Shown: positions 12,784 to 48,051 of the stretch, one piece after another | How positions within the stretch are numbered: position 1 is the first letter of the stretch | Layout: every line of letters starts with the position of its first letter | Origin: Candidatus Latescibacterota bacterium | Lineage (GTDB): Bacteria > JAAXHH01 | DNA length: 64,000 bases | Assembly (NCBI GenBank): GCA_022822725.1 | Contig: JAJEAN010000007.1 | Coordinates: 562,382 to 626,381 of the forward strand | Reading direction: 5' to 3' | The notes under the pieces: generated by a model | Database searches by the model: none | Seen by the model: only the letters and a program-made list of their open reading frames with translations | What the model was told of the DNA's origin: nothing | Translations under genes and position numbers: made by a program

Positions 12784-13839
12784 ATGTCGAACAACCGACC
12801 GCAAGTACTCATCGCCTGCAGTGAACGCGTCCGCAATGGCTATCTGCCGCCGAAGGAACTGACCCGCCTCGAGACGTTTGCCGACTGGACGTGGTTCCAC
12901 TCCGAGGGCGGCGGCATTTACGATACCAGCACGGATCCCGAGACCACGGTGCAACTGGCCGGCGAAATGGCCGGGGTGGATGCGCTGGTCGTCTGCCATG
13001 GTGCGCCGAGGATCGACGCCGAGATCCTGGATGCCGCGCCCCGCCTTAAATTTGTCGGCGAACTGGAAGGCGACCGTTTCGCCGCACGGCTGGATCTTGA
13101 AACGATGTGGGCCCGGGGTATCCGCACCGTAGATACGACGAATGGTTCCACTTATCCGGTAGCCGAATGGGCCCTGGCGCTTACGCTGATCTCCATGCGC
13201 AATGCCGGCGCGCTGTTTCGCCGCATCATCGAACGCAATACCCAGGACCGCAGTCTCATCCAGCCCATGGCGGGCATACTGACCGGCAAGCGGGTGGGCT
13301 TGATCGGCGGCGGCCACATGGGGCGGCGGCTGATGAAACTGTTGCGCCCCTTCGAGGTGGAACTATGGGTCCACGATCCTTACCTGCCGCAGGAGCTGCC
13401 CGAGGCGCTGGGCTTCATCCAGACGTCGCTGGAGAACGTGCTGTCGAAGTGCGACGCGATCATCTGCGTGGCGCCGCTCACGCCGAAGACCCGGGGCATG
13501 ATTGGAAAGCGCGAGCTGGATCTCATCCGGTCGGGGTCGGTATTCGTGAATGTGTCGCGTGGAGCCATCGTAGATTCCGCGGCCCTGATCGAACGGCTCA
13601 AGCGCAATGATATCGCCGCGGGGCTGGAAGTTTTCGACCCGGAGCCCATCCCCGAGGACAGCGAAATCATCGATCTGCCCAATGTTTTCCTGACGCCCCA
13701 CTTTTCCGGACGCACGGGCGAGGAGTATCCGCACTTCTTCCGCTTCATGGTCGATGAACTGGAACGGTTCTTCTCCGGCCACGAGACATGGTTCAACCTG
13801 ACGCCGCGATCGAAGGCCAACCGCGAGGGACAACCGTGA
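12784..13839 (+). CDS. D-isomer-specific 2-hydroxyacid dehydrogenase family (NAD-binding)
   Basis: GLIGGGHMGRRL Rossmann motif; catalytic-domain organisation typical of the family; 351 aa. Confidence 0.85.
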   Translation: MSNNRPQVLIACSERVRNGYLPPKELTRLETFADWTWFHSEGGGIYDTSTDPETTVQLAGEMAGVDALVVCHGAPRIDAEILDAAPRLKFVGELEGDRFAARLDLETMWARGIRTVDTTNGSTYPVAEWALALTLISMRNAGALFRRIIERNTQDRSLIQPMAGILTGKRVGLIGGGHMGRRLMKLLRPFEVELWVHDPYLPQELPEALGFIQTSLENVLSKCDAIICVAPLTPKTRGMIGKRELDLIRSGSVFVNVSRGAIVDSAALIERLKRNDIAAGLEVFDPEPIPEDSEIIDLPNVFLTPHFSGRTGEEYPHFFRFMVDELERFFSGHETWFNLTPRSKANREGQP

Positions 13840-15263
13840 CACGCCCCAACCTGCTTTACATTTTCACCGACCAGCAGCGCGCCGATACGCTGAGCTGCTA
13901 CGGCAATCACCAGATCGAGACGCCGGCGCTCAACGGACTCGCCGAGGACAGCTTCGTCTTCGAGAACGCCTACGTGAGCCAGCCCGTATGCAGTCCGGCG
14001 CGGGCCACCATGCTGACCGGTCTCTGGCCGCACACGGCGGGGGTGCCGTCCTGCAACGTACCCCTCGCCGCCGACAAGCCGACCATCGCCGAGATGCTTC
14101 CCAGGGAATACGATACGGCCTTCATGGGGAAATGGCACCTGGGAGACGAGATCTTTCCCCAGCACGGGTTCAAGACCTGGGTGGGCACGGAAGACCAGTA
14201 TCGACGGGGCTACTCGAAATCGGAGCGGCTGGCCGAAGTCAGCGACTATCATCACTTCCTGGTGGATAAGGGACACAACCCGGATACCGAACTGCTGGGT
14301 CAGAAGGTCTTCTCAAGGCACTATGCAGCATCCCTGCCCGAGGAATGCACCAAGGCGTGGTACCTGGGCGAGCGGGCGTCGGAGTATATTCGCGAGCAAG
14401 GCGACGAACCATTTGCCCTCTGCGTCAGCTACCTCGAGCCTCATCCCCCGCACACCGGTCCGTTAAACGACTACTTCGACCCGGACAGCCTGCCCACCGG
14501 ACCGGCTTTCATGCGGCAACCGCCCTTTGACGCACCGCTGCTCATCCGCCTGATGGCCGCATTTTACATGCAGTCGGAGAACTACGGGCTGGACCTGCGT
14601 ACCGAGACGGGCTGGCGGGCGCTGATGGCGCGGTACTGGGGCAACATCACCCTGGTGGATCGCTCGGTGGGGAGGATCCTGAAGGCCCTGGAGGAGAGCG
14701 GAAAGGCCGATGACACCATCGTCGTGTTCACCTCGGACCATGGAGAACTGATGGGCGATCACGGCATCCTGGGCAAGACGCTCATGTACGAGGAATCGAT
14801 AAAAGTGCCGATGTTGCTCCGCGCGCCTATGCTGGATCATCCGTCGCGGAGGATCAGCGGCCGGTTCAGCCACATCGACCTGGTACCGACGTTGATGGAC
14901 TTACTCGGTCTCGAACGGCCCGACCGGTTACAGGGCCGAAGCCGCGTACCTGTGCTGCAAGGGCACGATAACCTGGATAACGACGATGTGTTCGTAGAGT
15001 GGAGCGGAGAGGACGGCCACGCCCGGGCCGGTCTCGGTGAAGCCGAACCGAACCAGAGCATGGTCCATCAGTATCGGACGGTCGTTACGGCGGACGGTTG
15101 GAAACTCAACCTGTATGGGAAGGGGCAGGGAGAGCTATACGATTTGAATGATGATCCGTTTGAGTTGGAGAACCTGTATCATCATGATGGGCAACGGGCG
15201 CGTATCGGGGAGTTGAGGGAAAGAATTCGTGCTTGGCAGGAAGAGACGGGGGATCAGCCATGA
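13836..15263 (+). CDS. sulfatase (formylglycine-dependent arylsulfatase family)
   Basis: LLYIFTDQQRAD and CSPARATMLTG (C-x-P-x-R formylglycine motif) at N-terminus. GTG start overlapping upstream stop (GTGA); ATGA overlap with downstream gene, so the three genes are translationally coupled. Confidence 0.85.
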   Translation: MTRPNLLYIFTDQQRADTLSCYGNHQIETPALNGLAEDSFVFENAYVSQPVCSPARATMLTGLWPHTAGVPSCNVPLAADKPTIAEMLPREYDTAFMGKWHLGDEIFPQHGFKTWVGTEDQYRRGYSKSERLAEVSDYHHFLVDKGHNPDTELLGQKVFSRHYAASLPEECTKAWYLGERASEYIREQGDEPFALCVSYLEPHPPHTGPLNDYFDPDSLPTGPAFMRQPPFDAPLLIRLMAAFYMQSENYGLDLRTETGWRALMARYWGNITLVDRSVGRILKALEESGKADDTIVVFTSDHGELMGDHGILGKTLMYEESIKVPMLLRAPMLDHPSRRISGRFSHIDLVPTLMDLLGLERPDRLQGRSRVPVLQGHDNLDNDDVFVEWSGEDGHARAGLGEAEPNQSMVHQYRTVVTADGWKLNLYGKGQGELYDLNDDPFELENLYHHDGQRARIGELRERIRAWQEETGDQP

Positions 15264-16363
15264 AAACTGGAAAAGTCGCGGTCTTCACTCAGGCGCAATC
15301 CCCGATGGAGATGCGTGAGTATCCCGTACCATCGGTTACGGCGGACGACATGCTCGTCCGGATCCGAATGGCGAACATCTGCGGCTCCGATCTGCACTTC
15401 TGGCGCGGGCACGGCCCCAAGATCACGAGCGGCATCCCCCAGGTGCTTGGACATGAAATGATCGGAACGATTGAAGCCATGGGGCGCAATGTGACGACGG
15501 ACAGTACGGGACAGCCGCTGTCCGAAGGGGATCGCATCGTCTATTCCTACTACAAACCGTGTCAACAATGCTGGATGTGCCTCAACGGCATGCCGGGATG
15601 CCCCGACCGTTATCGAGACTGGCTGGGCGTCTCAAGCGATCAGCCGCCCCACTTTCACGGCGCGTACGGTGAATACTACTACATGAAACGCGGCCACTGG
15701 GTCTTCAAGGTCCCCAATGACCTTTCGGACGCGCTCGTGTCTCCGATCAACTGCGCTTTGTCTGAAGTGATATACGGTCTCAATCAGATCGGCATCACCC
15801 TGGGCGACACGGTGGTCATTCAGGGGGCAGGCGGCCTTGGACTCTATGCGACCGCAGTAGCAAGGGAGATGGGGGCTGGAAGGATCATCGTGCTCGACCG
15901 GCTGCCGGCGCGCCTCGCACTCGCCCGGGAATTCGGCGCCGACGAGACGCTAAACGTCGATGAAATTGACATGAAAGCACGCATTGAGTTCGTACTCGAC
16001 CACACGGGCGGGGTCGGCGCCGACCTGGTCGCCGAATTCGTAGGATCGCCGCGCGTACTCGCCGAAGGCATCGATATGCTCAGGTGGGGCGGCCGTTATC
16101 TCTGGATCGGTAACATCAACCTGGGATTTCCCACCGAGATCGATCCGGGCAACATCGTCCGGTGCAGCAAGGCGATCCGCGGCGTAATCGTCTACGAACC
16201 CTGGGTCATCCCGCGCGCCCTCGAATTCCTGAGTCGTACGCGGGACAGGTATCCGTTCCACAAGATCATCTCCGATACCTTCTCATTCAGTGAAATCAAC
16301 GAGGCATTCGTATACGCGGACAAAGGTTCTGCTATCCGGGTTGGACTGGAATTCGACACTTAG
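15260..16363 (+). CDS. zinc-binding alcohol dehydrogenase (MDR) family oxidoreductase
   Basis: GHEMIGTIEAMG zinc-ligand region, structural-Zn Cys cluster (CQQCWMCLNGMPGC), GAGGLG NAD motif. Confidence 0.85.
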   Translation: MKTGKVAVFTQAQSPMEMREYPVPSVTADDMLVRIRMANICGSDLHFWRGHGPKITSGIPQVLGHEMIGTIEAMGRNVTTDSTGQPLSEGDRIVYSYYKPCQQCWMCLNGMPGCPDRYRDWLGVSSDQPPHFHGAYGEYYYMKRGHWVFKVPNDLSDALVSPINCALSEVIYGLNQIGITLGDTVVIQGAGGLGLYATAVAREMGAGRIIVLDRLPARLALAREFGADETLNVDEIDMKARIEFVLDHTGGVGADLVAEFVGSPRVLAEGIDMLRWGGRYLWIGNINLGFPTEIDPGNIVRCSKAIRGVIVYEPWVIPRALEFLSRTRDRYPFHKIISDTFSFSEINEAFVYADKGSAIRVGLEFDT

Positions 16364-16679
16364 ACTCAGTAGACTTAGCTCTTAACGAGAATCCGCGCAA
16401 GGAATCTCCTTTTTGACGACGAAGGTAACCGGGTATTCCAAGATCACGGTGTTCTTGTTGCGATTTTTGACTCGCACGCAATCTAGTGTAAGAATGATAA
16501 ACTTGTCTGACTTCATATTACCTTTGGCAGGCGGATGCGGTAGACGTGAAAGTTTTGCATGAGCAACAAGAGATTTGTGTTTATAAGGATTGGTCGATTG
16601 AGTACATATATGGCGATTAAATCGTAGCAAATCATGCCGACACAAATGTTGAACATTCATAGCAGAAGGCGTTGAATCG

Positions 16680-16886
16680 ATGCGACAAGTTGTTCTTTAT
16701 CCTGGAGAGGACGGCTTTTGGATTGCAGAATGTCCAAGTCTGGCAGGTTGCATAAGTCAGGGCGAATCTCGGCAAGCGGCGATTGAAAGAATCAAGGAGG
16801 CTATCGAAGCATACGTCGAGGCTTTGGAAGACGATGACCTTCCAGTTCCTGAGGACAAATTCGAGGCCTTGGTCGTAGCCGTATGA
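16680..16886 (+). CDS. hicB: type II toxin-antitoxin system HicB family antitoxin (UPF0150)
   Basis: 68 aa. MRQVVLYPGEDGFWIAECPSLAGCISQGESRQAAIERIKEAIEAYVEAL matches the HicB consensus closely. Confidence 0.85.
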   Translation: MRQVVLYPGEDGFWIAECPSLAGCISQGESRQAAIERIKEAIEAYVEALEDDDLPVPEDKFEALVVAV

Positions 16887-16945
16887 ATGTTCTGCCCGCA
16901 ATTTCAGGGCGCGAATGTGTCAAAGCACTTGCCAAAGTAAAGTAA
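16883..16945 (+). pseudogene. truncated HicA-family toxin remnant (20 codons: MNVLPAISGRECVKALAKVK then stop)
   Basis: ATGA-overlapping ORF after hicB whose N-terminus matches the HicA N-terminal consensus (LP-x-SGRE-VK-L) but terminates after 20 aa. No continuation recognisable in other frames; the PhyH gene begins 34 bp later. Confidence 0.5.
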
Positions 16946-16978
16946 CGGGAATCAGTCACTGTAAAGGACCCACCCCCC

Positions 16979-17785
16979 ATGGCCATGACCGAAGAAGAAC
17001 GCTTCCGATTCGACCTTTCCGGTTTTCTCGTCCGTCCAGCGATACTCACCGCGGAAGAAGTCAAAGAAATCCGCGAGCAGATATACCTGATCAAGCACGA
17101 TCCTGAATCGCTCCCACCGGAACACCGGGACGTGCCCGGGGGACCGTCGAGCGTCCTGATCGATCATCCGGCCGTCGTGGACGTCATCGAGGAGATCATA
17201 AGCCCGGATTTCCGGCTGGAGAACTGTTCCTGCGTGTGGCGCAAGAAGGGGGAAGAGCACGGGGAACTGCACGGCGGCGGTCCCAGGCAGATCGATCCGA
17301 TCTTCGGGTACCGGGTACAGCGCGAACAGATCTACGCCGGCATGGTGCGGGTGATCTTCGAGTTTACGGATATCAGGATGGAAGACCAGAGCACGCACTT
17401 CGTGGTGGGGAGCCACAAGGCAAATTTCCCTATGCATCCCGACCACATGTCCCTGGAGGAGGGCAAGCGTAGCGAATTCCTCGTGACCTACGCCTGTCCT
17501 GCGGGCAGCGCAGTCTTCTTCACCGAGAACACATGCCACGCGGGTCCCAAGTGGAACCGGGACGAGCCTCGCGTGACCGTGCTCAACGCCTATTCACACC
17601 TGGCCACCCACTGGCACCGATTGAAAACGCCCCCCGCAGTCATAGCCGGCCTTCCCCGCGAGAAGCAGGTTTACTTCCGCGAACCTTGGATCGCCGATTT
17701 CCGAACGAGTCCGGCTACCAGGAACACGGCGGAGCGGTTCATGGGCAATGACGAACCGCCGGTCAATGCCGACACGAAGCCCTGA
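16979..17785 (+). CDS. phytanoyl-CoA dioxygenase (PhyH) family Fe(II)/2-oxoglutarate-dependent oxygenase
   Basis: 268 aa; PhyH-like length and His/Asp-containing core (HFVVGSH...H). Confidence 0.75.
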   Translation: MAMTEEERFRFDLSGFLVRPAILTAEEVKEIREQIYLIKHDPESLPPEHRDVPGGPSSVLIDHPAVVDVIEEIISPDFRLENCSCVWRKKGEEHGELHGGGPRQIDPIFGYRVQREQIYAGMVRVIFEFTDIRMEDQSTHFVVGSHKANFPMHPDHMSLEEGKRSEFLVTYACPAGSAVFFTENTCHAGPKWNRDEPRVTVLNAYSHLATHWHRLKTPPAVIAGLPREKQVYFREPWIADFRTSPATRNTAERFMGNDEPPVNADTKP

Positions 17786-17885
17786 TTACATTTCGTGCGA
17801 TCAGGTAAGGATCCGGCCTGGTAGGGGAAAGGTTGGGTTGGGTGCCGAGGCCGAACACGGCCAACTGAAGTCAAGGTCCCACAGG

Positions 17886-17929
17886 CGCGGTCGCACGGTC
17901 ACGGCCGCACGGTCACGGCCGCACGATGG
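17886..17929. repeat. 14-bp tandem repeat (cgcacggtcacggc x2.7) spanning the stop codon of the enolase-superfamily gene
   Basis: Direct reading. Confidence 0.8.
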
Positions 17930-19130
17930 AGCCATCCGCCCTGCGATCTTCAGCGGCGTACAATGGCCTGGCTGCTGCGTCAGCGTCGATGAGTTTTGCG
18001 GCCGCATCTTCGTCGATATCCAGCCCTAATCCAGGATTGTCGTTGGCGTAGAGGTGCCCGTCCTGCAGCACGCAGGCGCCGGGGAACGCCGCGTATTCCG
18101 CCTCGCTGAAGGTATTCTCCTCCTGGATCCCGAAACTCCAGCTCGACATATCCAGATGGACCGCTGCGGCCTGGTTGACCGGGTCGTTGTCGCCCCCTTC
18201 CTGCCAGGCGGTGTTGATGCCGAAGGACTCGCACAGGTTCGCGATCTTCCGGCACGGCGTGATGCCGCCCGCCTTGGATACGCGCACGCGGACGTAGTCG
18301 ATGAGCCGCTCGGTGATGAGAGGCGTCCATTCGTGGGGATTGACGAAGAGTTCGCCCATGGCCTGGGGCGTCGTGCACTGTTCCCTGATCAGGCGGTACC
18401 ACTGCACCTGCTCTGGGGGCAGTACGTCCTCCAGGAAGAAAAGCCGGTAGGGTTCGAGGCGCTTGGACAGGGTCACGGCGGACTGGGGCCGCAGGTGTTC
18501 GTGGACGTCGTGGGTCAGCTTGGGGCCGAATCCGAGTTTCGAACGCAGATACTCGAACATGTTTGGGATGGCCTCGATGTAGGCCTCGTCGTCGAAGACC
18601 TGGTCGGCGGGCCATGCGTTAGCCGGTCGGGGCGCATCCTCCGAAGGAATGAATCCCCCGCCGCCGTAACCGCCCAGCTGGCAGCGCACCACGGGGAAAC
18701 CTTCCTCAAGGTAGGCCTGTACCGCTTCCAGCAGGGCCTCCGGCGTGCTGCCGCCCGCGTGGGCGTAGCAAGGGACGGCGCTTCGGCATGCACCGCCCAG
18801 GAGCTGGTAGACGGGCATCCCGGCTTCCTTGCCCTTAATGTCCCACAGGGCCATGTCGATCCCGGAAAGGGCCGTGTTGGTGATGGCGCCGTTGCGCCAG
18901 TATCCGCTCGTGTAGAAGGTCTGCCAGATGTCCTCAATACGGCTGACGTCCCGCCCGATCAGCCTGGGGGCCAGCAAAGACTCGACGGCTTCGATGACGG
19001 CGCGCTGGTGGTAGTGGTCGCTCGCCGAACCGATGCCGTACAGCCCGGGTTGATTCGTTTCGATCTTGACGATGCCCCAGGTGCCGTTCGATCGCGTCCG
19101 GATGCACTTCACGCCGGTGATGGTCGTCAC
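17913..19130 (-). CDS. enolase-superfamily dehydratase, mandelate racemase/muconate lactonizing enzyme family (D-mannonate dehydratase ManD / RspA-like)
   Basis: 405 aa. N-terminal VKIETNQPGLYGIGSAS... and DMALWDIKGK motif typical of ManD/RspA subgroup. Confidence 0.85.
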   Translation of the reverse strand: MTTITGVKCIRTRSNGTWGIVKIETNQPGLYGIGSASDHYHQRAVIEAVESLLAPRLIGRDVSRIEDIWQTFYTSGYWRNGAITNTALSGIDMALWDIKGKEAGMPVYQLLGGACRSAVPCYAHAGGSTPEALLEAVQAYLEEGFPVVRCQLGGYGGGGFIPSEDAPRPANAWPADQVFDDEAYIEAIPNMFEYLRSKLGFGPKLTHDVHEHLRPQSAVTLSKRLEPYRLFFLEDVLPPEQVQWYRLIREQCTTPQAMGELFVNPHEWTPLITERLIDYVRVRVSKAGGITPCRKIANLCESFGINTAWQEGGDNDPVNQAAAVHLDMSSWSFGIQEENTFSEAEYAAFPGACVLQDGHLYANDNPGLGLDIDEDAAAKLIDADAAARPLYAAEDRRADGSIVRP

Positions 19131-19141
19131 GGTCCGCTCCT

Positions 19142-19936
19142 TTATTCGGTCGTAATTCGCTCACCGTCTTCGATAAAAGGTTCGGCGTTGCTCCAGATCC
19201 GCGAACCGTCCTCGGTGTAGATCGGTTCGGCGGAGTACTGGGTCAGGTAGACGCGGCGCCAGCCGTCGGAGGTGTTCGGGCTGCTGCGGTGGAAGGACAC
19301 GCTGGAGAATACGGCGATGCTCCCGGCCGGCGCGACCACGGGCACGCCGGGATCGTCCCCGAAGTATCCGATCTTGTCGTTCGAACCTGCTTCGACGGTG
19401 TGTTCCAACCGGTGCCGGGTCCCCGCCCGTGAAAAGGGCAGGATATAGACCGTGCCGTTCTCATCGGAGACGTCGTCGAGGGCGGCCCAGCAACTCAGGT
19501 AGGGCCGGTGGTCGAAGCCCACGTAGCCGGAGTCCTGGTGCCAGCCGAACTTCATGCCGACTTCGGGGCCCTTGACCACGAACTGCTCGTGGAAGAGAAA
19601 GGCCGTGTCGCCGAGGGTCGCGCGGCAGATTTCGGCCATGAGCTCGCTGAATATGAATGGACGCAGGCCTGGATTGTCCCGGTGGCGGTTCGAAATAAAC
19701 AACCGCCGGCCCTTGTGGGTTATGCCCTTGGCCGCGACCTCGGCCTGATCCATCTTCGCTTCTTCCTCGGCCGTCAACCGGTCGCACTCGCCGCGTATGT
19801 GCGCCAGCTGCGCGTCATCCAGGGCGGCCTCGAGGATGAAGTATCCCTCTTCCCGGTACTGCTCCTTTTGCGCGTCGCTGATCTTTAATGGGCTCTCGCC
19901 GGTTTCCTGTCCACTGCTGTTTGCTGTAAAGCTCAT
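19142..19936 (-). CDS. phytanoyl-CoA dioxygenase (PhyH) family Fe(II)/2-oxoglutarate-dependent oxygenase
   Basis: 264 aa. WHQDSGY iron-binding motif plus distal His (SFHRSSPN) characteristic of PhyH family. Confidence 0.8.
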   Translation of the reverse strand: MSFTANSSGQETGESPLKISDAQKEQYREEGYFILEAALDDAQLAHIRGECDRLTAEEEAKMDQAEVAAKGITHKGRRLFISNRHRDNPGLRPFIFSELMAEICRATLGDTAFLFHEQFVVKGPEVGMKFGWHQDSGYVGFDHRPYLSCWAALDDVSDENGTVYILPFSRAGTRHRLEHTVEAGSNDKIGYFGDDPGVPVVAPAGSIAVFSSVSFHRSSPNTSDGWRRVYLTQYSAEPIYTEDGSRIWSNAEPFIEDGERITTE

Positions 19937-46965: not shown

Positions 46966-48051
46966 ATGAAGGAAACTGTTCGCATCGGCATGATCGGCGC
47001 AGGGCACATCGCCCATTCGCATGCGGAGGCGTGGCAGAAAGAAGCTTCGCTGACCGCGGTGGCCAGCCGCCGTGTCGAAAGCGCCAGGTCCCTGGCGGAA
47101 CGGCACGGCATACCCCACGTGTGCCGGGACGCGAGTGAGCTGTTGCACCGCAACGACATCGACGCCGTCGGCATCGCCACGCCCCATCACCTGCACCATC
47201 CCATCGCCCTCGCAGCCCTGGCGGCCGGCAAATCCGTGTTTTGCGAGAAGCCCCTTGCACTCGATGGTTCGCAGGCCCGGGAAATGTGGTCCGAAGCCCG
47301 CCGCCGGGCGGCAAAAACAGGCGTGCAATCGGGCATCCGCCTTTTTCCGGCGCTCCGTCTCCTTTCCCGCCTGTTGCGGGAGGGTCGGGCCGGCAATATC
47401 CATACTTTCGACGCCCACTGGTCCTTCGACTGGGCCAGGGATCCCGGCTTTCCGCTGACCTGGCGGTTCAGGCGGGCCGAGGCCGGAACCGGGGCCCTGG
47501 GCGACCTCGGCGTATACATGATCGATGCGGTCCGCTGGCTGGTCGGCGAGATCGCGCAGGTCAACGCGGAACTGGCAGTATACATTCCGCGGCGTCCTGT
47601 ACTGACTTCGCCCGGACACTTCGGCGAACTGCGCCGGCTGCATCGAGCGGAGCAACTGGAGGTATCACGGGAGACCGGACCGGTGGAAAACGATGACGTC
47701 TGCCAGGTGCTGCTGCGGTTTGAAAACGGCGCCCGTGGGTCGATCCGGGCCAGCCGGCTTCACCAGGAACATTCCATCCGGATAGATTGCGAGCGGACAT
47801 CCTACCGCTGGCAGATGACGGGAGACCGGCGCCTCATGGAGCGGTCCAAGGGAGCGGAATACACGCCCGTCGAAATGCCGGAACCACCAGGTGGCGGCAC
47901 CATCGTGACGACGTTTCTCCAGAACATCCGGAGAGATGAGGACAAGGCGCCCACGTTCCGTGACGGCCTGGCGGCCCAGCTCGTCATAGACGCGGCGGTC
48001 AGGTCCCACGAAACGGGCGGGTGGGTAGATGTGCCGAACGCCGAAGGGTAG
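46966..48051 (+). CDS. Gfo/Idh/MocA family oxidoreductase
   Basis: RIGMIGAGHIAHSH Rossmann motif, EKP motif (FCEKPLA). Confidence 0.85.
   Translation: MKETVRIGMIGAGHIAHSHAEAWQKEASLTAVASRRVESARSLAERHGIPHVCRDASELLHRNDIDAVGIATPHHLHHPIALAALAAGKSVFCEKPLALDGSQAREMWSEARRRAAKTGVQSGIRLFPALRLLSRLLREGRAGNIHTFDAHWSFDWARDPGFPLTWRFRRAEAGTGALGDLGVYMIDAVRWLVGEIAQVNAELAVYIPRRPVLTSPGHFGELRRLHRAEQLEVSRETGPVENDDVCQVLLRFENGARGSIRASRLHQEHSIRIDCERTSYRWQMTGDRRLMERSKGAEYTPVEMPEPPGGGTIVTTFLQNIRRDEDKAPTFRDGLAAQLVIDAAVRSHETGGWVDVPNAEG

Follow-up and report, generated by a model that had tools for sequence, protein, structure and literature searches.

The low-GC islet that separates the genes for a Zn-dependent alcohol dehydrogenase (ADH) and a PhyH-family dioxygenase in a 64,000-nucleotide stretch of the genome of Candidatus Latescibacterota bacterium (contig JAJEAN010000007.1; hereafter the window, that is, the whole stretch analyzed, at its full length) is very probably what erosion has left of a Class 2 hicBA toxin-antitoxin (TA) cassette, in which a deletion of about 238 base pairs (bp) took three quarters of the toxin gene hicA and left the antitoxin gene hicB intact. 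The deletion of the toxin gene is an ordinary, already documented route of decay for such cassettes. The first-pass annotation of the window had described a decayed TA module with an inactivated toxin and a retained antitoxin, a description that is borne out by the intact hicBA pairs at the same junction in syntenic relatives.

The hicA Stub and the Deletion

The short open reading frame (ORF) of 20 amino acids (aa) that overlaps hicB in an ATGA motif, an overlap noticed previously and indeed present, had been taken for the N-terminus of HicA. Its product has no match in Pfam or NCBIfam, being too short for any hidden Markov model (HMM), and its kinship with HicA is established through the syntenic relatives: its first 18 aa are all identical to those of the intact 73-aa HicA encoded at the same position, in the same reading frame and with the same ATGA overlap in L003–L006 (Table 1), with three nucleotide differences from L003 and L006 that are all synonymous, and 17 of the 18 are shared with L001. 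The intact HicA of the relatives (MNVLPAISGRECVKALARAGFYVRRQRGSHIVLRRDDPLTQVVVPDHRTLDRGTLRAIIRQCGLGVEEFSGLL) likewise overlaps the hicB stop codon and matches the HicA_toxin family (PF07927; 70.9 bits, E = 9e-20, residues 9–64); its best match by sequence among solved structures is 1whz, deposited as "Hypothetical protein". Of the 56 residues that make up the HicA domain, the stub keeps only 10 (residues 9–18) and 46 (residues 19–64) are gone, with the RGSH segment (residues 27–30; GSH at 28–30) and everything downstream of it deleted. The histidine of the GSH segment is, as we assume from the HicA proteins of Burkholderia pseudomallei and Escherichia coli, the catalytic one. Because residues 19–64, including the GSH region, are missing, the stub presumably cannot be a toxin. 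In agreement with the earlier statement that the rest of HicA is nowhere to be found, a tblastn search of the 64-kb window with HicA detected no other HicA segment.

In the syntenic relatives, the order is sulfatase, ADH, the same AT-rich spacer, hicB, full-length hicA, a spacer of about 110 bp and PhyH. Compared with L001 and L003, the window shows a net loss of about 238 bp, which comprises hicA codons 19–73 (about 166 nucleotides, nt) and about 75 nt of the spacer between hicA and PhyH, so that the hicB stop and the PhyH start are 92 nt apart in the window vs. 330 nt in these two loci. The TAA stop codon of the stub, located 33 nt before PhyH, comes from the retained spacer, within the right copy of a direct repeat discussed below. 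A truncation by either insertion or deletion next to PhyH had been considered; the deletion stands, the locus being about 238 bp shorter exactly there, and the insertion does not. Given that the differences between the stub and L003 are all synonymous, so that the two sequences would have diverged mostly while hicA was under selection, the deletion looks fairly recent. As for its route at the nucleotide level, short repeats resembling GCC(A/G)AAAG are present at hicA codons 17–18 and, in some relatives, in the 3' spacer; a simple microhomology event was tried as the explanation and rejected, since no such product reproduces the AAAGTAAAGTAA junction of the window.

A second truncation of nearly the same kind is found in another lineage, represented by three independent assemblies (L093–L095), in which hicA breaks within about 3 nt of the window breakpoint and the junctions are similar (GCCAAAAAAAGGT vs. 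GCCAAAGTAAAGT). The stub of this group belongs to the V6/R14 allele type, as in L092, and that of the window to the L003 type, suggesting that the deletion either recurred at one place or occurred once, long ago, with gene conversion thereafter. This second truncation bears on two further explanations. That the deletion is an artefact of assembly or binning, the real genome carrying an intact hicBA, is highly improbable: both the exact junction and the exact HicB sequence are absent from the other public assemblies searched, as would be expected of an artefact, and the patterns of the junction and of the hicB/hicA boundary are absent from the JGI metagenome contigs as well, but the truncation recurs almost identically in the three assemblies mentioned, the flanks of the window are collinear with no sign of a break, and such deletions are common at this locus. 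We also consider it most unlikely that the 20-codon ORF is a functional micro-protein or a regulatory leader that, for example, links the translation of hicB with PhyH. The stub keeps its ATGA overlap with hicB, the ORF ends close to PhyH, and the equivalent ORF of L093–L095 overlaps the PhyH start codon; against this, neither the length nor the tail is conserved (20 aa in the window, 32 aa in L093–L095, which also carry extra substitutions), and in most relatives hicA is either complete or absent. The stub of L093 has an E11G replacement at a position where the five intact hicA alleles compared (L001, L003, L091, L092, and L097) all have E. A micro-protein conserved across the relatives, which would have spoken against the original interpretation, is thus not observed.

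An Intact HicB without a DNA-Binding Domain

The 68-aa HicB, previously described as intact and well conserved, matches the HicB_lk_antitox family (PF15919) over residues 9–58 with 31.4 bits, above the gathering score of 27, whereas a scan of NCBIfam profiles gave no match. It has 642 homologues, the best 120 of which are nearly all 68 aa long and the closest of which are 90–97% identical. The protein encoded in the window differs from that of L001 by two amino-acid changes, one of them unique (S37R), at 0.09 synonymous substitutions per synonymous site (dS), and its exact sequence has no copy in the protein collection searched.

In the AlphaFold2 model (predicted local distance difference test score, pLDDT, 81.4), strands at residues 4–8, 14–17, and 25–28 are followed by a helix (31–51) and a final strand (65–67), the strand-strand-strand-helix-strand order of a partial RNase H fold. 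A Foldseek search of the PDB with this model returned HicB or putative antitoxin structures as the top nine matches, the best being 6g1c (template modeling score, TM, 0.74, probability 1.0), followed by 4p78, 6hpb, 6u0i, and 6g1n with probabilities of about 1.0, all five being N-terminal domains of HicB; the modest E-values (4e-3 to 0.1) are in keeping with a query of 68 residues. The model spans just the N-terminal half of the full-length HicB structures (TM normalized to the target, 0.33–0.39). Accordingly, the HicB of the window is the toxin-binding domain alone (partial RNase H-like, HicA-binding), lacking a DNA-binding domain.

These features point to Class 2 of hicBA modules, in which hicB precedes hicA, the stop and start codons overlap, HicB (60–90 aa) and HicA (60–85 aa) are both short, and HicB has nothing but a partial RNase H fold, with no DNA-binding domain (Gerdes, 2024, mBio; PMC10865869). 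The length of HicB, the lack of the DNA-binding domain, the hicB-first order and the ATGA junction with the stub all agree with this class; a functional HicA partner is absent beside hicB in the window and present in L001–L006, L091, and L092. Class 2 modules are common, no member has been experimentally tested, and their regulation is unknown given a HicB without a DNA-binding domain (PMC10865869).

Two other candidate features were dropped. An 11-nt perfect inverted repeat that brackets hicB (16651–61 and 16882–92) is, by eye, complementary at only 8 of the 11 positions in L001, and a weak HicB-like tblastn match at 47903–47971 is spurious, lying antisense inside a 361-aa ORF on the opposite strand.

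Toxin-First Decay at the Same Site in Related Genomes

Related loci were gathered with PhyH as the anchor, one per species, yielding 79 distinct loci in genome contigs. About 30 related loci make up the decay series described here; they belong to a clade of uncultured genomes that carry the label Gemmatimonadota or Latescibacterota, and the chromosomes of the relatives are 3.7–3.97 Mb in size. The next tier of matches to the PhyH anchor comes from Poribacteria, which are sponge symbionts; PhyH orthologues with 73–79% identity are abundant in the genomes of Poribacteria and Latescibacterota and sometimes form tandem triplets (L033).

The comparison with close relatives that the first-pass annotation had proposed reveals both full hicBA pairs and empty sites, along with a range of intermediate states (Table 1). 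Lesions of hicA next to an intact hicB are present in the window, L093–L095, L008–L010, L011/L014, and L023. Because none of the about 30 loci compared contains an intact hicA next to a broken hicB, the toxin goes first in the decay of this cassette. Where intact, hicA alleles show ratios of nonsynonymous to synonymous substitutions (dN/dS) of 0.05–0.23.

Table 1. Features of the islet and its flanks in the window, and states of the hicBA cassette at the orthologous site in relatives.
Feature	Window positions or related loci	Strand	Basis or remark
hicB, 68-aa antitoxin, intact, no DNA-binding domain	16680..16886	+	PF15919, AlphaFold2, Foldseek
hicA stub, 20-aa ORF MNVLPAISGRECVKALAKVK	16883..16945	+	18 hicA codons (16883-16936), 2 junction codons, TAA
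Deletion junction AAAGT/AAAGTAA	16936..16945	.	alignments A1, A2
Left copy of imperfect ~30-bp direct repeat, TAACGAGAATCCGCGCAAGGAATCTCC	16383..16409	+	alignment A3 with empty sites
Right copy of imperfect direct repeat, TAACGGGAATCAGTCACTGTAAAGGACCCACCC, with PhyH ribosome-binding region	16943..16975	+	alignment A3
AT-rich non-coding part of islet	16410..16650	.	blastn of segments
Proximal hicB upstream region, ..ATCATGCCGACAC..TTGAACATTCATAGCAGAAGGNGTTGAATCG..	16630..16679	+	upstream alignment
Zn-dependent alcohol dehydrogenase gene, left flank	15260..16363	+	Pfam ADH_N, ADH_zinc_N
PhyH-family dioxygenase gene, right flank and anchor for orthologous loci	16979..17785	+	Pfam PhyH
Intact hicBA	L001-L006, L091, L092
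hicA with 1-bp deletion in GGGG run	L023 (~533); same change in L007 (~4355)		codon ~52
hicA cut at codon 18/19	window; L093-L095		three assemblies (L093-L095)
hicA replaced after codon 3-5 by unrelated sequence encoding a 348-383-aa protein	L008-L010		SEC-C motif in L008/L009
hicA with frameshift and truncation near codon 31, then second HicB-like gene	L011/L014
hicB C-terminally truncated, hicA absent	L020
L020-type truncation plus W14 stop codon in hicB	L021
81-bp hicB remnant	L013
Empty sites, 50-84 bp from ADH to PhyH	L015, L018, L026		about 50 bp from ADH stop to PhyH start in L015, L018

Several of these states deserve comment. The 1-bp deletion shared by L007 and L023, which represent distant lineages, could stem from an inactivating slip that recurs or, in L007 at least, from an error in sequencing; we did not count the L007 frameshift as a firm independent lesion, since the PhyH gene of this locus is frameshifted as well. 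The arrangement of L011/L014 exists in an intact version in L091, and in both L011 (5352–5549) and L091 (3716–3913) a second, divergent HicB-like gene (65 aa; PF15919, 33 bits) that has no toxin gene of its own is located between hicA and PhyH. In two species, L012 (7826–8000) and L017 (100–275), the spacer between ADH and PhyH carries a different, unrelated insert of about 175 bp that bears no resemblance to hicB. L013, L014/L011, and L027 have no ADH gene, hicB or PhyH coming immediately after the sulfatase gene, indicating that deletions at this hotspot also take a neighboring conserved gene.

Selection on the Orphan hicB

In every pair of orthologues compared, hicB shows a dN/dS of 0.06–0.31. 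For two of the loci in which hicA was replaced, L009 and L010, the shared replacement junction indicates that the hicB genes diverged as orphans, and the values (dN 0.045, dS 0.365, ratio 0.12) show that, at least in that lineage, the orphan gene was kept by purifying selection for a substantial time. Altogether, orphan hicB genes persist in at least four lineages. Besides its orphan hicB at the PhyH site, the L010 chromosome has another hicBA pair, an intact one, about 15 kb away and next to a transposase gene. Because the HicA of this second pair resembles the lost one (about 82% identity, by eye), cross-neutralization by the orphan HicB appears plausible in this genome. The intact hicBA of L097 (3001–4928; OZ252103.1), about 15 kb upstream of the orphan hicB of that genome, adjoins a Transposase_mut gene and lies at the left edge of the PhyH/2-Hacid_dh/sulfatase cluster; its HicB ORF, called as 85 aa, shares 84% identity with the HicB of the window, and its HicA has 73 aa. 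The window contains no counterpart of such a second pair.

These observations raise the possibility, on balance a doubtful one, that orphan hicB is selected as a stand-alone immunity gene that counteracts addiction by, or cross-neutralizes, paralogous or incoming HicA. Apart from the constraint on the L009/L010 orphans, their persistence in several lineages and the similar HicA of L010, it would be favored by the conservation of hicB, which at the nucleotide level is 90–97% identical between the window and its relatives, compared with 84–94% for the flanks overall (ADH about 87%, sulfatase about 84%, MR_MLE about 88%). There is also an anti-addiction precedent in ccdEch (Saavedra De Bast, 2008, as cited in PMC2654758), and an anti-addiction role has been proposed for orphan antitoxins in a Klebsiella survey (PMC7192599). 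Nevertheless, general retention is contradicted by the relatives, in which hicB is truncated or interrupted after the loss of hicA (L020 and L021), reduced to a remnant (L013) or lost altogether from several species, including those with empty sites; no hicA paralogue exists within the 64-kb window; the ribosome-binding site of the window gene is weakened; and recent exchange by recombination, instead of constraint, could account for the lower dS of hicB. Indeed, in about half of the pairs, hicB dS is 2–3 times below PhyH dS, the two being similar in the other pairs, and, together with the high identity, this suggests either exchange between species or constraint on synonymous sites.

There is an even chance that the whole islet is by now neutral debris and that hicB is intact only because of the short time elapsed since the deletion. 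The synonymous nature of the stub differences, which implies a fairly recent event, the Shine-Dalgarno substitution that occurs in no other locus compared, the later stages of decay in the relatives and the erosion without long-term retention reported for Photorhabdus (PMC13617665) are all in line with this explanation. It is less readily reconciled with the purifying selection between the L009 and L010 orphan copies and with the fact that the window hicB has accumulated no more than the two amino-acid changes relative to L001. The hicB gene of the window may either be retained by selection or have not yet decayed.

Composition, Origin, and Exchange of the Cassette

The islet occupies the interval from the end of the ADH gene to the start of PhyH (16364–16978), and the coordinates and GC profile confirm the low-GC block described in the first-pass annotation. 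The GC fraction is 0.421 in 16364–16679 and 0.502 in hicB, and runs at 0.40–0.47 across about 16300–16800 vs. about 0.6 on each side. When set against the 64-kb window, the segment 16414–16941 (0.456) turns out to be the lowest-GC stretch of 528 bp, more than four standard deviations (sd) below the mean (0.628, sd 0.035), and the sole region with a GC fraction below 0.50.

Imperfect copies of the empty-site sequence (...TAACGAGAATCCGTNCAAGGAGTCACC-CATG) flank the islet on either side, which indicates that about 30 bp were duplicated when the cassette entered the spacer. The left copy is the original ADH-PhyH spacer, including the AAGGA that resembles a PhyH ribosome-binding site, and recombination between the copies could regenerate empty sites. 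Taken together, the repeats at both ends, the empty sites (L015, L018, and L026) and the GC deficit support a foreign origin of the cassette. Named homologues of HicB with 75% identity are found, among the matches listed, in Ignavibacteria and Bacteroidota. The horizontal acquisition suggested in the first-pass annotation is thus partly supported, by the empty sites, the target duplication and the low GC, but not as a recent arrival. Since hicB occupies the site in all three main branches of the PhyH neighbor-joining tree (a single-gene tree with no support values, hence indicative), rather than in one lineage, the cassette appears to have been acquired long ago or exchanged repeatedly.

The junction between ADH and PhyH, upstream of the PhyH orthologue, is variable in L008–L010, L016, L019, L021, L028, L091, and L092. 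Genes at this site in other species encode a C5 DNA methyltransferase, whose best PADLOC match is DrmMII (450 bits), alongside a GHKL ATPase with weak resemblance to type II restriction enzymes, as well as HD-CE/HATPase_c_3 proteins of 780–915 aa, a 1310-aa protein without a Pfam match and the SEC-C-motif protein; proteins with matches to the reverse transcriptase family RVT_1 also occur, the match exceeding the Pfam cut-off in L028 and falling short of it in L019. The site is thus a hotspot for variable genes, of which at least the methyltransferase/ATPase pair is defense-type. A bolder proposal, which we regard as unlikely, is that in this clade the short HicB, devoid of a DNA-binding domain, acts on its own as an anti-HicA immunity gene maintained by selection; located at the edge of a recombination hotspot for defense genes, it would outlive its toxin, the cassette being exchanged between species via the conserved flanks. 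If so, repeated exchange through these flanks would account for the higher conservation of hicB relative to the surrounding housekeeping genes.

The islet is embedded in a conserved cluster (13788–19900 in the window, and in relatives) that encodes the sulfatase, the Zn-ADH, several PhyH-family dioxygenases, an MR_MLE enolase-superfamily enzyme, a short-chain dehydrogenase, and a 2-hydroxyacid dehydrogenase.

The AT-Rich Upstream Region

The region upstream of hicB is a mosaic, in which 16364–16409 is the original ADH-PhyH spacer, 16410–16488 is common to L001–L007 and L093–L095, and 16489–16650 is common to L001–L007 only, the L093 group having instead an unrelated stretch of about 570 bp. 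In that stretch (2430–2985 in L093; also in L094 and L095), an ORF with a hydrophobic segment can be seen by eye, and 76 bp of it recur elsewhere in L021. The proximal part, about 50 bp including the Shine-Dalgarno sequence, is kept in nearly all loci that carry hicB, and homology to distant relatives starts there. The Shine-Dalgarno sequence itself is AAGGCG in the window vs. AAGGAG in most relatives.

The absence of a convincing ORF in these 300 bp, as initially reported, was upheld. A minus-strand ORF of 92 aa was rejected as a gene, its sole match among 1.84 billion representative proteins being the same locus in a relative; the frame is broken in L001 and there is no Pfam or NCBIfam match. 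The search for regulatory elements was likewise negative: an Rfam scan of 16200–17100 with E up to 1 detected no family, a sigma-70 promoter scan gave a single match (16467–16495), no more than in shuffled sequence, and a terminator scan found none, the outcome of the promoter and terminator scans being alike in an intact relative. The spacer between hicA and PhyH that is deleted in the window folds, in the intact relative, no better than shuffled sequences (z = -0.38). The suggestion that the upstream region might hold the operator of the module is weakened: because the 68-aa HicB lacks a DNA-binding domain, an operator bound by it is unlikely (PMC10865869).

A Scenario for the Erosion of the Module

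The islet most probably goes back to a compact type II hicBA cassette, encoding a 68-aa HicB translationally coupled to a HicA ribonuclease (RNase) of ~73 aa, that sits in the ADH-PhyH spacer, bracketed by the ~30-bp duplication. In the lineage of the window, a single deletion of about 238 bp removed hicA codons 19–73 and most of the downstream spacer, leaving a stub of 18 codons that runs into a fortuitous TAA. The module would then no longer work as an addiction or abortive-infection device, and hicB would probably still be expressed from the conserved proximal upstream region. The toxin-first order of erosion would follow from the asymmetry of the two losses, because loss of the toxin should be harmless whereas loss of the antitoxin should be lethal as long as the toxin is active. 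The orphan hicB might persist for a time, during which it could neutralize related HicA encoded elsewhere or on mobile elements, and would eventually be lost.

Some points weigh against this scenario. Current transcription of hicB is presumed from the sequence, and the toxicity of Class 2 HicA as well as its neutralization by HicB are assumed by family membership (PMC10865869). The exact junction is seen in one assembly only, and the junctions of the window and of the L093 group are alike while their stubs resemble different intact alleles, which is compatible with one event or two. Finally, the Shine-Dalgarno substitution of the window is found in none of the 11 other loci compared and could mean that selection on hicB is already relaxed.

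With regard to annotation, hicB of the window is best described as an orphan antitoxin and the 20-codon ORF as a hicA pseudogene fragment. Beyond this single locus, the orthologous loci form an unusually complete natural series of TA erosion at one chromosomal site in an uncultured lineage, from the intact pair through loss of the toxin (by at least four or five different lesions) and truncation of the antitoxin to a remnant and, finally, the empty site. This series supports the toxin-first model of erosion and offers a concrete test of selection on orphan antitoxins. Also of value are the hotspot context and the evidence that an orphan HicB with no DNA-binding domain is under selection.

Comparison with Known Systems

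Among the known systems, the cassette of the relatives fits the Class 2 hicBA modules in all respects compared (68 aa and 73 aa, with the ATGA overlap), whereas that of the window is incomplete, having only 18 codons of hicA. With the canonical HicAB systems of E. coli, B. pseudomallei, and Yersinia pestis (HicB3; 6hpb, 6g26, and 4p78), the similarity extends to the fold of the N-terminal part of HicB (probability 1.0, TM 0.60–0.74) and to the membership of the relatives' HicA in PF07927. In contrast to the cassette described here, in the canonical systems hicA precedes hicB, and HicB, at ~135–145 aa, has a C-terminal ribbon-helix-helix (RHH) or helix-turn-helix (HTH) domain that autoregulates the operon; the HicB of the window lacks such a domain.

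The orphan antitoxins of Klebsiella and ccdEch resemble the hicB of the window in being intact, in lacking a functional cognate toxin while remaining in the context of the original pair, and in the plausible neutralization of homologous toxins encoded elsewhere.

The closest parallel to the decay series is provided by the erosion of TA systems in Photorhabdus, where pseudogenization of the toxin only (185 copies) far outnumbers that of the antitoxin only (8 copies) and erosion without long-term retention is the general pattern (PMC13617665), and by the decay of ccdO157 in E. coli (Mine et al., 2009, as cited in PMC2654758). The hosts differ, being here uncultured bacteria labelled Gemmatimonadota or Latescibacterota, as does the TA family, hicBA; and whereas the TA systems of Photorhabdus seldom cluster with defense systems (PMC13617665), the neighboring variable genes at the ADH/PhyH site include defense-type ones. 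In all these cases, an islet between core genes exists in intact, toxin-inactivated, and empty states at one site with high gene turnover, and inactivation of the toxin only is far commoner than that of the antitoxin only. The asymmetry observed here is the one that TA biology predicts, and it matches both the Photorhabdus survey and the decay of ccdO157.

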